From Moniliella sp. 'wahieum' (taxonomy: Eukaryota): DNA of 64,000 bases. Below the pieces are notes generated by a model that made no database searches, was not told the DNA's origin, and was given only the letters and a program-made list of their open reading frames with translations. Where the stretch lies: contig RSEE01000027.1 of assembly GCA_003971905.1 (NCBI GenBank), positions 434,001 through 498,000 on the forward strand, written 5' to 3'. The position numbers and the translations under genes are program-made. Positions 1-61,335 of this stretch are shown here, piece by piece; the stretch's first letter is position 1; every line of letters begins with the position of its first letter.

Positions 1-2649
1 GGGCACAGAAGATGATGCACTGCGCATGATGCACGACGGGAGGGGGGCGTCCGGATGGGGACGAGCGAGAGGGACGGGCGGCTGGCTACAGGTTATACTT
101 CGGCGTGCTGCCGGTAACCGGTACGAACCGTACCTAATTGTAATAGCGGGGAAGCGTGAGTTGTACTATAATACTAGCGCCTAGCTGCTGGCTGAGGCTC
201 TAGGCCTGTCTGCAGACACCCCAGCCCACACACCTACCCGGTACGCGGCAACCAATACACTGCCGGCACCCGCGTGGGGGCGCCGCTCCCCCGCGGGCCT
301 CAGCCTGACGCACTCAGTGCCCAGTACAGTACTCAGCCCAGCCCCTCCGCCGCCATCGGTCTAACAGCGCCAGACTGCACTCAGCCTACCACAGCCTATA
401 CCCAACTTACCCCAGAATCGACACAATCCCCGGCCCGCAATAGTGTGCACATGCGGGGTAGCCGGTAACCGGTAACTCTTGCACGACGTGTTGGCCCGCC
501 CGCTCAGGGCCTCACGCGTCACGCCTGAGCCGCCGGCCGCACTCCACGCCTGCCTGTCTCCACCCGCTCTCCCACCCGCGACCGGGTTTGAAGCTCCGCT
601 TGACTATACGCTCACCATTCAGATTCATTTCATAGTCACAGTCGTACGCGTTCCCTCCGTTGTACGGTCCGTGTTGCTACGTTGATATGCGCTCTGATCG
701 ACGTTCGAGAGATACAGTGGTGAGCGTCGCAGGCTCGGGCGATCGAGGCTCCTACCATATGCGTTCACGAACGTCAGACGAGTGTTTCAGAGCAGTTTGC
801 TCGGACCCGGACCCCCACACCAGAGCTGTGCCACCTGGAGGTGCATTGTCCCATGTCATACGCTGTCCTAACAAGGAGACCGACTAAACTCCGTCGACGG
901 GGGGCGGTGGTGGAGTTGTTGAATATCTTTTGGAACCACTGGCGTACTGCGTATTCAGTACTGACACATTATTGGCGTTTTTAACGCACGTTGGCGAGGA
1001 TAGCAAAATGAAGATCAAATGGGTTAATGACCGCCCCCCTCCCCCAAACTCCTGCATCACACCACAGCGGGCTCACATGTCACATGTCACAGGCACACCG
1101 CCCCACCCCCACCTTGCCATCTCTCTGGCAGCCAGGCGCTATACAGCAGGGCCCGAATTGCGCCTACCAACGCAGGAGTAGTGCGTGCTGGCCTATACTA
1201 CGCACGCGTGTGCTTATGCATCGAGACAAACAAATCGTGTCCATCGCCCACAGGAGGCGTGACGCGTGACGTGACGCGTGATGCGGGAGAGCGAGCTGGT
1301 CCGTGTGAGCCACATCGCCCCATCACCAATCAGATCACGAACACGACCGATTGCGTTTCTCCTGTCCCAATAAGCGAGTAGCGGATTTATGCCAGCAGGG
1401 CCAACAGACTCGATATACCGCGGCTGCGACGCTCAGCTGGGAACTGCACGGCTCAAATCCCCCCCCTCCTGCCTACACCCTCCAGAAGCATTCCATGTCA
1501 ACTGTCAGCGCCCTCAGCACTGGCAGACTACTCAACCACGCAGCTCACTTTCCAAGCCCCCACATCGCGTAACGCCACTAAATACCACACCAAGGAGATC
1601 ATTCGCATGCCAGTGTGGAGAGAGGGCAACTCAGCTCACGGTGGACTCTCAGTGCCGGCATCAATTAAAGTCTCCATTGATCTTTTTTGCCACCGTCGGC
1701 CGATGTTACACACCACGAGGGGAAGCTGGGGTACCGTCGGACTCAATCCACCCGTTCGGCTTCCTCGCTGCATTATACGGCGCCCCCCACGTCGATACCA
1801 ACGCAAGAAAGCGGAGAGGTATCCTGGACCTTACCATATAGTATCTTGCCCCACAGCTTCCTCAGTTGAACTGCTGAGCGCAGTCGAGTCGATGCTCCCG
1901 CGTCACATGCATCACAGGGCTTGATTCCCGGCCTGAGGACTTTTAACAGAGAGTGATCCAGGCCAGCGACATGATGAACGACAAGTTTTCGCCGCGATGG
2001 GGAAGCGCTCTCGCACCTCATGATACCACTCATCGATCTTGCGGACCTTATCTAGGCTGCTGAGCTTCTCAGCAAGAGCCTGGGCTGCAGTGTTGTCTCC
2101 ATAAAGAGATGGATTGGGTGTGCGGCAGAGCAGATGCTCAGCTCAAAAAGAATATGTTGCGCACAAAGAGTGCATCGCGCAACCCATCACTCCCATGGCC
2201 AAGTATCTGGAAGCGGCTGTATTGCTCACCCCGTGGTTCTTTGTCTTGATGGTATCCCACGAGATGGGCACACCATATACAAAACAACGTACCCAGAAAC
2301 AGGCCCTGAGTAAAACTTGTCGGAGGCAAAAGAAGCATCCTTGTGCAATTCGAGGAGGGGACCTGGAGCGCTCACGTGTCAAGGAGGAGAGGGAACTTAT
2401 GGTCAGCAGTATCATTCAAATACTGCAAGAAGCCTATGGCAGCGTCACGGTGAGCACGAGAAAAGCCATCCAATAAACGAGCTAAAAGGTGGTGGAAAAC
2501 AAGGTGTCCGGGCGGGACATGCGTGCTGACCACATGGCGGACCCGACCATAGAGCTGTAGGTGTGATGGTCTTCGCGCGTGGATCGCAGTTCGTGTTCGG
2601 GATGTATAGCTGAAGAGGAAGAGTGTGGCTAAGCGTGAACCGTCGAGGA

Positions 2650-5600
2650 TGTTGACCACCAGTGGTCCCGAGCCCATTGGCCTTCAGCGACACGTGGCCC
2701 GATGCACGCAGTGCACTGAGATAGTGCGTCGCGGACCTTCCACGGGCTTCCACTGCTGGCCTCCGAGCCCGGAGCCTACCATGACCCATAGGCATTGCTC
2801 TCCTTAGCTCTGGAATACCATCTCCATTCCCCATCGCCACAGCAGCGACAGCTAGGCCCATGAAAGAAGAGGATCGTGGGTCATGTCGTGGGTGGCAAGC
2901 ATCTCACAGCAATGAATTTGGTCTGGCGCACATAGAAGCGCCCATCAATAGGTCCTACGGGCATAATCCGAGTGGAAACGAAGGGGGCATTGAAGTTAAT
3001 CTCAATATGGCCGCGAAGTTCGACAAGGAAGGAATCGTAAATTTCTACCGAACGACGGCAAGCAAAACAAGGAAATCGTCAGTGTGAATCGCCAAGAGGC
3101 TAGGTCCAAGTCTTATTTGATGCGACGAAGGAAAGACATGCGTCTGACTGAGACTGTGGTAAAGCCCAAAGGCGATCATCTCGCAAGGAAGGTATACGCA
3201 ACCAGTTAAAATTGGTCCCAATTTATTCATAGAGACCGTCGAGACGTTTCTCCAGTTTCCAACACTTGCCCTTCCCTCCTGTTGGGAGGACAAATGGAGG
3301 CGGCCAATATAGACCTCTTCTGTCAAGTCGGCGTACATGCAGGTACGCTACCTCGACGTCGGCTGCTTGAATCGATTGAAGATGTGGCTCGACAAACTGA
3401 ACTCCAGTCCGCGACCCCATGGTCAATTGGTTGTGAAGTAGCACCAAAACCGTGGAAAGCTTCTCCTGGGGTGAGGCGAGGCCGTGTCTTTATCGCAGAA
3501 GGGCAAAAATAGAGTCAGGAAGCAAGAGCCGACATGTCAGCCTCACTAGGCGATTCATGGACAGAACGGTGGAGCTGAACATAAAGGAGATTGAACCGAC
3601 AATTCGCGGTCGTCTATAGACCAGCTTTATATATAATGTGTGCTGGCAGGTCCCAATTAAACAATTGCCCGACATCCCTTGACAGCCAGATCCATAGAGG
3701 CTGAGATGCTGGCAATCCCCACGGCCAAAAATACTGTCCTGCAATGGTTTATACTTGTCCACGTCGTGAATCGGTCGGTGAGATTGGACAAAGCGGTCAA
3801 AGTCTTTTTGGGTCTGTCCCGTCGTTGGGGTTGCGTTTATATATTGCCGTATATATATAGGCCTCGACGCTAAGGAGACCCCACCAAATGCCCGAACGAC
3901 ATGGCCATTGATTGACGTGGCTAATAGGAGATGGAAATGGGGGAAAGGGTGAGAATCATATTCATCGAGTGGGAACAGGGCGAGGTATATATGCCTCGGA
4001 GGAGAAGAGAACATGTGAGCTAAGTCACACGGAGAATAAATAAAGGAGAGCATATAGTCAAAGGGGGAAGACAGGGTCTAACAAATCAGGGATTAGTCAA
4101 CGTGGTGACTACTAGAAATGTGACCACGTTGGTCTAATCCCGACACTGGCTCCAACGGTCTCTGAAGATCATCGATCGCCTTTTGCACATCCGTGGCTGT
4201 AGGTGTGTGTGAGTCGTGACCACAGATGTAACGGAAGGAAGACCGATATAGTTGGCGGAAGAAATCTGCCGTTTTGTAGAACCGCAACAGCAGCTGGGAC
4301 GCCCACGTCATTTCCCCATTGTTTTTCTCGGCCAAGCCCATCAGGCGATCCGTAGCCAATCCGGAACTGACGAGCATAGTTAAAGTGGACATGATTGTAT
4401 CATCAATCTCGGAGGAGTTATATGCCGTCGTAACCAATATATGGGAGGGCTTTACTTATATAGAAGACCAGAGAGCAGGGAATTGATCGTGTGTGTATCG
4501 TTTTGCATATGAGCTATTACGGAGGCTAGATAGTATTCCTGCCCTCTGAAGGAATGGACCTGAAGGACACGGGATTGGGCTACCGGCGCGCCACTATTAC
4601 ACTAGTGTGCGCCACACATTGGTTCTTCGTAACTACAGCAGCGCTCCCCTCCGTCTCATTATACATCAGATCACTGCCACCAGCCACTTTTCCGTGCAAT
4701 GGGTAGCTCTCAATTAGCCAATGAGGTAAAGTGGACATATCGTCTGTCTTTTCTTCAAAATAACGGCGGGGGGTGGGGGCAGATAAGGCGATATTGGATG
4801 ACGGCGGGGTCCTTCCTTCCCCAGGTGCAAGGGGGTTACACGGATTGGAGACCACCAAAACATTGCCCACAAGAGACGACTCACGGTCGATTTTGAATCC
4901 CAGAGAGGTGTGGGGTGTTACGCTGAAGACAGATAACTGAGTGATGGCGAGTGGGTATGAAAATGTCGGAAACGAGATAAGCGCCCGTGAACGTCGGCCT
5001 TTTTATTGCTTTTTCACCGGACGTGAGCCCTGAACGTCGTCTTGGACTAAGAGCTAGTTCTGCAACTGAGAATCGTTCCATATAGACTGGTGCCAACTGA
5101 GAATGAAAAGTCGACTTTTCTTCACCGTCGCGTCCCTCGTGATGATGGGTAGTTTGTCTGAGTTAGATGTACTGAACAACGTAGCGGGAGACACGTTTCT
5201 CACGATGCTCGAGGTGCTGCACCAAGTGGAGTTGGTCAGTGTCATGGGCGGGCTGAGAGCCAGTTTGTGGAGTGCATCAATCCCTTGGAGAACAGAAGCA
5301 TGACTCACACAGTATTTACGTGCTTGGGCTGTAGTCGGTGGAGATTCAAGCGGAACTATAATAGGGACAAGGAATGGCCTCTCACCGTATAACAGAAGAG
5401 ACAACGGCTACTGTCACGGTGCGGGCGCCGCCAGGGGGCTAATAGCCCGGGTTTATGGGGTACTATCCCTTAGGAGACGGTAGGCCAACTCACGGCAGTT
5501 TAGGATTTGAGCTAGTTGGTGGATCCGAGCGGATCTAGGGACGAAGACAGGCCTTCGGGCGCGAAATCGAGGCGACTTCACATGTGGCAAGGCTGGGCAT

Positions 5601-60703: not shown

Positions 60704-61309
60704 GTTTTGCCATTCTTGGTCAGCGTTGTGCGGCTGCTGGTGACTTCCCCAGCTTGTGACCCAAGCTAACTAAGTATACGAATAAGTAGTTGTACTTGTG
60801 TATGCTTGGCATTTTGTAGCGAGACAATCATATGTGCTTAGCGCGCTTAACCCGGTGCTTATATATCAATCGTGACCAACATTGATGTGACTGTGACCCA
60901 TAATGAAGACGGCGATATAGCTGATTGTGGAAGAGCAGAGCGAAAGGAGATGACGAGGGGAGAGAGCTGGAGGATATATATCGATGTGACATCAGTGCGT
61001 GAGTGAGATCTCTGAGAGGGCAAATGTGTTTTGTGGTGATAAAAATTGATGAGGCCGTGGGGGCTGGGCAGTGGGTATCCATTTTGCCCGAAGCATTTTC
61101 TGGTACGTCTATGCGCCCGTTAGGACCAAGACCGAGGCCAACAGCCTCCTTTTCACTTGCGCTCACCAACCCGCATCGGGATGGTCCGTCCGCTGGGCCG
61201 CATGGACACCCCGACCCAAGCATGTGCTTGTCACATGTGATATCGCACAACCCTAAACGCATATCACACGCCATCGCCATGCGTCACCGGCATTGGGCCG
61301 AATGCACTC

Positions 61310-61335
61310 TGATGCATGATGCATGATGCATCGAT
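61310..61335. repeat. Heptamer palindrome array (ATGCATG)3
   Basis: tg atgcatg atgcatg atgcat cgat. Confidence 0.9.

Follow-up and report, generated by a model that had tools for sequence, protein, structure and literature searches.

How can one stretch of non-coding DNA carry many tandem arrays of hexamer palindromes that agree in their first and last letters and in their period of seven nucleotides (nt), and yet differ in sequence from one array to the next? The question is raised by 64,000 nucleotides of Moniliella sp. 'wahieum' (contig RSEE01000027.1, positions 434,001 to 498,000), hereafter called the window, and all window counts given below come from this one 64-kb stretch. A sequence-only reading of the window had noticed that these palindromes start with A, end with T and are followed by one spacer base, each junction thereby reading T-N-A (N being any base), and had hesitated between a symmetry-driven mutational process at T-N-A and a selected structural element such as a cruciform, a chromatin mark or a replication mark. 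Here, the pattern is found to be a mutational scar and not a structural or regulatory element. The arrays are stacked copies of a single 12-mer, in which seven bases have been gained at a T-N-A site and the palindromic core is copied from one flank of that site. Tentatively, these scars may have been left by the excision of a hairpin-forming DNA transposon. The mutational reading is therefore supported in a modified and sharper form, while the structural reading is unsupported.

Anatomy and neutrality of the T-N-A scar

The period-7 pattern of A....T palindromes is far above chance. Searches for arrays of at least two exact copies of the same hexamer palindrome gave 11 arrays at period 7, all of them A-first (11/11), against none at periods 6, 8, 10 and 11, one at period 9 and five at period 12. 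Pairs of identical neighbouring palindromes at period 7 numbered 15, again without exception A-first (15/15), and none occurred at periods 6, 8 or 10; 100 dinucleotide shuffles gave on average 0.01 A-first pairs and 0.23 period-7 pairs of all kinds, and never more than 2. The window also has 32 exact period-7 runs that are 14 nt or longer: the unit was a perfect A....T hexamer palindrome plus one base in 19, a C-, G- or T-first palindrome in none, and the other 13 runs include four homopolymers. Tandem Repeats Finder recovered the arrays named in the sequence-only reading, and each of the ten cores that it had listed was found in place or close beside. The comparison that it had proposed, with dinucleotide shuffles, other periods and other first letters, shows an enrichment, with 15 A-first pairs against 0.23 per shuffle, and its placing of the arrays holds in general, except that the one reported at 112-122 is a decayed copy, with GCCGGT as its first hexamer and TAC as its second T-N-A.

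Arrays are the minority form (8/43 loci). The basic unit is the 12-mer TNAxy-y'x'-TNAxy, where primes mark complementary bases: two direct copies of five nucleotides agree in their N, and the spacer between them is the reverse complement of the last two repeat bases. Perfect 12-mers numbered 65 (both strands) and fell at 43 loci, 35 with one unit, five with two and three with three or more. By comparison, 30 dinucleotide shuffles gave 0.4 each (maximum 1), and 12-mers built on the control centres A-N-T, C-N-G and G-N-C were absent from the window (0, 0 and 0). Based on these numbers, the claim that neither ordinary slippage nor a single transcription-factor motif suffices can be upheld: most loci are single units, and the core varies and is copied from the flank.

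The way in which the seven bases were added can be read from the shorter 10-mer TNA-xyy'x'-TNA, which occurs 77 times (A-N-T, C-N-G and G-N-C controls: 5, 13 and 18). Its two N are identical in 59 cases, complementary in nine and otherwise different in nine. Since N is the same on both sides, the two T-N-A are direct copies rather than mirror images, and the event is a direct 7-nt duplication-insertion; the sequence-only reading was right in calling the process mutational, but the hairpin expansion that it had envisaged, if taken to invert the entire unit, predicts a complementary N and is rejected. When the 59 same-N 10-mers were extended in the 7-nt register, the number of matching bases on the two sides was (2,0) in 13, (0,2) in five, (0,0) in five and (2,2) in two. 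The commonest extension thus comprises exactly two bases on one side only, which makes the 12-mer the unit and one flank the source of the core. A spacer of 2 nt is the only one at which the direct repeat TNAxy is enriched, with 84 occurrences compared with 7 to 43 for spacers of 0-1 and 3-10 nt, and it reads y'x' in 65 of 85 cases and N'A in none (0/85). Same-N T-N-A pairs placed 4 nt apart enclose a palindrome in 59 of 112 cases, whereas palindromic spacers of 2 nt (10/44) and 6 nt (3/81) are at chance level, and abutting same-N TNATNA (63/142) is hardly above other spacings. Without T-N-A, 5+2+5 repeats are not above chance in the window (24, about 32 expected). A fold-back at T-N-A, or a hairpin of the transposon-end type with T-N-A as its loop, predicts TNA-y'x'-TNA-xy, of which only eight were found.

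T and A are thus strictly required and the middle base is free, the N of the scars following the base composition of T-N-A sites at large (G 1039, C 966, A 397, T 396). Among the 16 possible 4-nt palindromes, 13 occur as cores, AATT, TTAA and TATA being the missing ones, and this variety implies that the core is not derived from an element. Loci with a common core have otherwise unlike flanks, and no longer dispersed repeat containing arrays or scars was present in the window. A variant with a 5-nt spacer, in which an extra base separates xy from y'x' (e.g. GGGCC, GCGGC), was found at 13945, 15744, 26951, 27056 and 47900; the extra base is always a repeat of the central palindrome base.

The scars are absent from confirmed coding sequence. 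Open reading frames (ORFs) with Pfam support cover 10,990 bases (17.2% of the window) and overlap none of the 43 loci (binomial P = 3e-4), in agreement with the earlier remark that recognised exons were free of arrays. Outside ORFs of at least 110 amino acids (aa), 30 of 832 T-N-A sites carry a scar (3.6%), compared with 13 of 1966 inside (0.66%), a contrast drawn with a loose proxy, such ORFs covering 78% of the window, and a partly circular one, every scar carrying stop codons on one strand. Intergenic regions are affected alike whether they are divergent, tandem or convergent, at promoters as well as at 3' ends. A decay series accompanies the perfect copies, with 72 one-mismatch 12-mers (11.4 expected) and 273 two-mismatch 12-mers (160 expected), while mismatched 12-mers with control centres are at expectation; the near-equal excess at zero, one and two mismatches is the pattern that steady production followed by neutral decay would leave. 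Folding is weak: as single-stranded DNA, the longest arrays reach -2.6 to -5.9 kcal/mol (z-scores -0.9 to -2.5), and a single unit -0.6 kcal/mol. Together with the 35 of 43 loci that are single non-folding units, this leaves the proposed cruciform, chromatin or replication mark unsupported. The anatomy of the scar and its neutrality are well founded.

The scar was also sought in other genomes. Metagenome contigs scanned for (AGGCCTN)3 contained at least 121 such stretches, and 120 loci (504,246 nt) were examined, none of which resembled the window by blastn or tblastx. Most are GC-rich and show only the seeded core. Cores other than this one appear in 13 T-N-A 12-mers across all these loci, compared with 7, 35 and 30 12-mers built on the control centres; the same count in the window gives 59 against 0, 0 and 0. 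One 18.2-kb contig (L050, GC 52%) is fungal, encoding a Fungal_trans domain, IDO and IPK1, and is unrelated to the window. Between its positions 9499 and 11134, the T-N-A scars TGAACGTTGAAC and TCAAGCTTCAAG, with ACGT and AGCT cores, lie beside the seeded GGCC array, so that the scar is not private to the genome of the window. Further cores adjoin the seeded one on two contigs of about 0.6 kb each (L080 and L117). Other period-7 sequences of these metagenomes follow other rules. Almost the whole of a 6.6-kb contig (L001:1-6662, GC 61%) is a mosaic of period-7 tandem duplications with ever-changing units, comprising 155 runs at period 7 against 9, 15, 64 and 18 at periods 5, 6, 8 and 9; no more than 16 of the period-7 runs are palindromic, and this contig represents a different, unspecific grammar of heptamer duplication. 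Inverted pairs, in which (CCTGAGG)n is followed by (CCTCAGG)n, were observed in L051, L068, L107, L108 and other GC-rich, bacteria-like loci.

Candidate origins of the scars

The origin that we favour, while holding it only tentatively, is that the scars are excision footprints of a hairpin-forming cut-and-paste DNA transposon with a 7-bp target centred on T-N-A. The transposon, its target and the hairpin chemistry are inferred, as are all five steps of the scheme, by which a site ab-T-N-A-xy would gain seven bases to become ab-TNAxy-y'x'-TNAxy or, in the mirror case, ab-TNA-b'a'-abTNA-xy. Insertion would proceed by a 7-bp staggered cut centred on the strictly required T-N-A and would duplicate abTNAxy. 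Upon excision, the enzyme would close both flanks as hairpins, in the manner of hAT, Mutator-like and Transib/RAG enzymes, and a host nuclease would then open each hairpin by a nick placed two (or three) bases away from the tip. The result would be one flank that ends in xy-y'x', the last two bases being palindromic (P) nucleotides, and another that, on the same strand, begins at T and lacks ab. Ligation of these two strand ends and fill-in of the other strand would give abTNAxy-y'x'-TNAxy, and ligation of the other pair of ends the mirror product; nicking at three bases instead of two would leave the sequence unchanged, A and T being complementary. Finally, every T-N-A within a scar would be a valid target again, now a palindromic one, so that either outcome would add a unit in register, and slippage between 5-nt repeats lying 7 nt apart could add or remove units. 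Such scars would have no function and would persist only where a 7-nt insertion is tolerated.

Several published observations are in keeping with this scheme. The signature of excision by hairpin-closing transposases is an inverted copy of the flank, without spacer, between direct copies of the target (PMC4561436, PMC5499845), and the footprints of Ac/Ds are described as palindromic sequence derived from flanking DNA (PMC4561436). Hairpins on the flanks are reported for hAT, Transib, RAG1 and the Mutator-like element Muta1, with Artemis-like enzymes as possible openers and end-joining as the joining step (PMC5499845). The middle base of the T-N-A duplication of mPing is free (PMC4561436). Target duplications of 7 bp are reported in Basidiomycota for hAT7 (rust fungi, Pucciniales) and Kyakuja (mushrooms, Agaricomycotina) (PMC12730594), and Galileo, of the P superfamily, makes a near-palindromic 7-bp duplication, GTAGTAC (PMC2775673). 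In the window, both target copies are kept, if the scar is read as a 7-bp duplication with two nucleotides replaced, and flank-copied inverted nucleotides follow without spacer (y'x' in 65/85, from one flank). Under this scheme, the two mirror classes, the one-flank rule and the identical N are all explained, as are the lack of N'A spacers and the single spacing of seven; the both-flank (2,2) class would be rare because a target has a 1/16 chance of being palindromic already. Among the versions considered, the 7-bp target abTNAxy appears to be the one that respects the two-fold symmetry of a transposase.

A number of points weigh against an excised transposon. No transposase domain was detected in the 147 scanned of the 193 window ORFs of at least 110 aa, and within the 64 kb there is neither an element with terminal inverted repeats and a T-N-A or 7-bp duplication, which would be the matching element of a hairpin footprint, nor a dispersed repeat family. 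The same search for terminal inverted repeats and duplications in the metagenome loci re-found only the arrays themselves. Canonical members of the hAT superfamily duplicate 8 bp of the form nTnnnnAn and form their hairpin with a 1-nt offset, which leaves a complemented junction base. With a hAT-type offset, palindromes centred on A-N-T or scars with a complementary N would be expected, but no enrichment of either was seen, and the spacing is 7 and not 8. Hairpin footprints are known to be diverse, unlike the almost uniform product seen here. Other outcomes that the scheme allows are rare, amounting to one plain 7-bp tandem copy (48442-48459, GGTTAGC x2.6, with a central T-T-A and non-palindromic arms) and the five 5-nt-spacer variants. 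Retention of both overhangs, which predicts two successive 4-nt palindromes, was not seen in the window (0 found). Longer P tracts would give a complementary N, and 12-mers of this kind (three, against four with a transition and two with another transversion) could be explained by point mutation; counted by locus, the mismatched N are complementary in three, transitions in three and another transversion in one. A 5-bp asymmetric target, TNAxy with two P nucleotides, would fit the sequence equally well. N'A spacers would be expected if a 5-bp duplication received P nucleotides from both of its ends alike, and this version is rejected (0/85). Everything rests, moreover, on 64 kb. To our knowledge, PIF/Harbinger is the only family with a strict T-N-A target. 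Its members make 3-bp duplications and excise precisely (PMC4561436).

A second candidate, which we consider unlikely, is a host nuclease specific for T-N-A, for instance a domesticated PIF/Harbinger-type transposase, that cuts accessible non-coding DNA and whose breaks are repaired in a fixed manner that adds seven nucleotides. In its favour, PIF/Harbinger targets likewise demand T and A around a free middle base, no transposon was found in the 64 kb, and the product is very uniform. The difficulty lies in the chemistry: a simple break cannot yield two copies of TNAxy without a stagger of 5 to 7 nt and fill-in, we could derive by reasoning no route from 3-nt T-N-A overhangs to the scar, and fold-back routes lead to TNA-y'x'-TNA-xy, whose eight occurrences are not an enrichment. 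No candidate gene was found among the scanned ORFs of the window.

Ordinary microsatellite dynamics, in which palindrome-bearing heptamers expand while hairpins hold the slipped strands, are improbable as a full explanation. They would suit the eight of 43 loci that hold arrays of two to three or more units, the mostly uniform N within an array and the self-complementarity of the arrays. Yet 35 of 43 loci are single 12-mers offering nothing but a 5-nt repeat, and slippage can make neither a first copy nor an inverted dinucleotide. C- or G-first palindromes would fold better, but none was found, and the folding of those present is weak. Where heptamers are duplicated unspecifically, as on contig L001, palindromic runs amount to only 16 of 155. 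Slippage is contradicted as the origin of the scars, and is likely as a secondary route of array growth.

A further reading, which appears slightly less probable still, is excision in the style of Tc1/mariner at a 3-bp T-N-A duplication, the 4-nt palindrome being left by the inverted termini of the element. The layout speaks for it, since T-N-A, a 4-nt palindrome and T-N-A with the same N in 59 of 77 cases follow one another as in the footprints of TA mariners (PMC4561436). In such footprints the core would be the element's own, whereas here it matches one local flank far above the 1/16 chance per flank, with a match lacking in only five of the 59 same-N 10-mers. The 13 of 16 cores would require a dozen element families, and loci with the same core show no other likeness of their flanks.

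Selected cis-elements, whether sites of dimeric factors, cruciforms or stop codons in three frames, are very improbable. The scars do lie between genes, at promoters and 3' ends, and three T-N-A spaced 7 nt apart provide one strand with stop codons in all of its frames. Nonetheless, the core is arbitrary and flank-copied, the position relative to genes is not fixed, the decay series is typical of neutral sequence, no stable fold is predicted and the whole signal resides in the singletons. An artefact of sequencing or assembly is hardly credible, as it would not spare confirmed coding sequence, need T-N-A, copy a flank or produce decayed copies with one and two mismatches, and the same scars are present on the unrelated fungal contig L050.

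Scar loci and gene content of the window

The scars, to which no strand is assigned, lie between positions 464 and 61412 of the window. Two-unit arrays lie at 1073-1091 (core CATG, T-N-A reading TCA), 43910-43929 (AGCT, TGA) and 54511-54528 (CATG, TGA), and three-unit arrays at 8479-8501 (GTAC, TGA), 60680-60704 (GGCC, TCA) and 61310-61331 (TGCA, TGA). A further array at 47602-47621 has the core AGCT (TAA). The array at 1258-1281 (CGCG, TGA) is interrupted, and that at 45901-45927, also with the core CGCG and with N = G, A, G, is decayed. Composite loci comprise two GTAC scars with a CATG array (N = G, A, A) at 14215-14271, GCGC scars (TAA) adjoining a three-unit CCGG array (TCA) at 47887-47947, a GGCC scar with its 5-nt-spacer variant (GGGCC) and a CATG scar at 26949-27000, and abutting AGCT and TGCA units, the second with a different N, at 8377-8393. 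The most intricate locus, at 7936-7967, consists of nested scars that share T-N-A sites, with a GCGC unit (TGA), the 13-nt odd palindrome GCTGAG-C-CTCAGC, and GCGC and TGCA units; it suggests repeated events at one spot.

Scars with the core TCGA occur at 7626-7639, where both flanks are in register, and at 48503-48518 (TTA), and others at 27047-27060 (CCGG, TGA) and 54277-54290 (ACGT, TGA). The remaining loci are single scars. Their cores are AGCT at 8445-8456, 9481-9492, 16706-16717 and 61401-61412; TCGA at 9200-9211 and 59333-59344; GATC at 7601-7612 and 48235-48246; GCGC at 7821-7832 and 48676-48687; ACGT at 16956-16967 and 46735-46746; CATG at 47323-47334 (TAA) and 60470-60481; CCGG at 464-475 (TAA); GGCC at 7504-7515; ATAT at 9307-9318; TGCA at 13974-13985; and CGCG at 21839-21850. 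A single scar of sequence TCACG-CG-TCACG lies at 512-523, and one with the core CTAG, at 10301-10312, is inside an ORF without family match.

The window consists of nuclear DNA of a eukaryote, and its GC content is about 56%. Its housekeeping genes encode a DEAD-box helicase of the DDX47/Rrp3 type, which grouped with eukaryotic DDX47/Rrp3 proteins in a protein atlas, eIF5B, an ABCF ATPase, a DUF1765 protein, Nog2/GNL2, a YqeY (Aim41-like) protein, a Na/Ca exchanger, an RRM/R3H protein and a C2H2 zinc-finger protein. The top PDB matches of the eIF5B pieces are fungal chains, those of Chaetomium thermophilum and Saccharomyces cerevisiae being about equal in score, while the Nog2 piece scores higher with the S. 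cerevisiae chain than with those of human and C. thermophilum. Both proteins thus have their nearest matches in fungi, and the source is probably a fungus that belongs to neither of these two lineages. A protein search with the DUF1765 ORF gave eight relatives, the best at 63% identity. Other repeats were observed besides the scars. Four homopolymer runs of 14-16 G or C are located in non-coding DNA (10953-10967, 14710-14723, 30103-30118 and 48946-48961), and those at 10953 and 30104 are similar in their flanks. Three tandem copies of a 39-bp unit, with 88-93% identity, occupy a region without family match (39427-39542). Tandem repeats of 24 bp (eight codons) at 29072-29211 fall within a long ORF without convincing family match, which probably encodes a repetitive protein.

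Significance and comparison with known systems

Taken more broadly, the scars may reveal an undescribed and strictly T-N-A-dependent insertion process in a fungal lineage, a possibility that we regard with somewhat more doubt than belief. Such a process, due either to a new cut-and-paste element with a 7-bp T-N-A-centred target or to a host or domesticated nuclease coupled to fixed hairpin repair, would have marked several per cent of non-coding T-N-A sites with the same 7-nt, flank-templated, self-complementary scar, would have acted long enough to leave a full decay series and would constitute a birth mechanism of palindromic heptamer microsatellites. A full-text literature search found no description of T-N-A-centred 7-nt scars or of A....T palindrome arrays with varying cores, subscription journals being mostly outside its coverage, so that their absence from the literature is unproven. 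If the process is real, a measurable share of the intergenic DNA of this genome would be explained by one sequence-specific process, with 43 loci still intact and an excess over shuffle expectation of roughly 170 decayed 12-mer matches in 64 kb. The scars would also record, in a readable and datable form, the former activity of a transposon or nuclease in a region without any transposon copy, and would show how self-complementary microsatellites can be seeded. Their simple 12-mer signature could be counted in any genome to trace the enzyme and to compare lineages, and in annotation such arrays would have to be taken as scars rather than regulatory palindromes.

Among known systems, PIF/Harbinger elements (Tourist, mPing) resemble the scars in their need for T and A with a free middle base, as at the scar centre (PMC4561436). 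They differ in their 3-bp duplication, in their normally precise excision and in leaving no flank-derived palindrome (PMC4561436); here, T-N-A is strictly present and duplicated, but the duplicated block measures 5 nt and a 4-nt palindrome stands between the T-N-A pair, where precise excision or abutting duplications would leave none. By reasoning, the 7-nt product cannot be derived from 3-nt overhangs, and the period of five predicted by such a route is not seen. Tc1/mariner elements, including Stowaway, share the succession of duplication, palindrome of a few bases and duplication. Their inner bases are constant and element-derived and their duplication is TA (PMC4561436), in contrast to the varying, flank-matched inner bases of the scars with their 13 of 16 cores.

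Period-7 arrays of the L001 type are alike in period and in a unit that varies between arrays. They differ in accepting any unit, palindromic runs being at chance (16/155), and in having neither a T-N-A rule nor 5+2+5 singletons. Hairpin-driven microsatellites grow from an existing tandem repeat, unlike the scars with their single units, A-first restriction and weak folding.

The scars also resemble the footprints of hairpin-forming transposons (Ac/Ds and other hAT elements, Mutator-like elements, and the P-nucleotide joints of Transib/RAG), in which both copies of the target are kept and flank-derived inverted bases lie between them (PMC4561436, PMC5499845). The scars described here depart from these footprints in their spacing of seven, their strict central T-N-A, their near-uniform product and the lack of a 1-nt flipped junction base; they also occur without a donor element in the window, at about 3.6% of T-N-A sites outside long ORFs, and stack into arrays. 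The 8-bp duplication and 1-nt offset typical of hAT are not seen, although a 7-bp hAT, hAT7, does exist (PMC12730594). Galileo, another 7-bp duplicator, has A-N-T at the centre of its duplication (PMC2775673), where the scars have T-N-A. For hAT7 and Kyakuja, the comparison concerns duplication length and not target sequence, the supplement of PMC12730594 giving element consensus sequences without their target duplications. A genome-wide load of scars was not reported for 7-bp duplicators in the portions of the literature examined. In their stagger of 7 bp, hAT7, Kyakuja and Galileo nonetheless match what the excised transposon proposed here would require; two of the three are fungal, and hAT7 belongs to a superfamily that forms hairpins (PMC12730594, PMC2775673).

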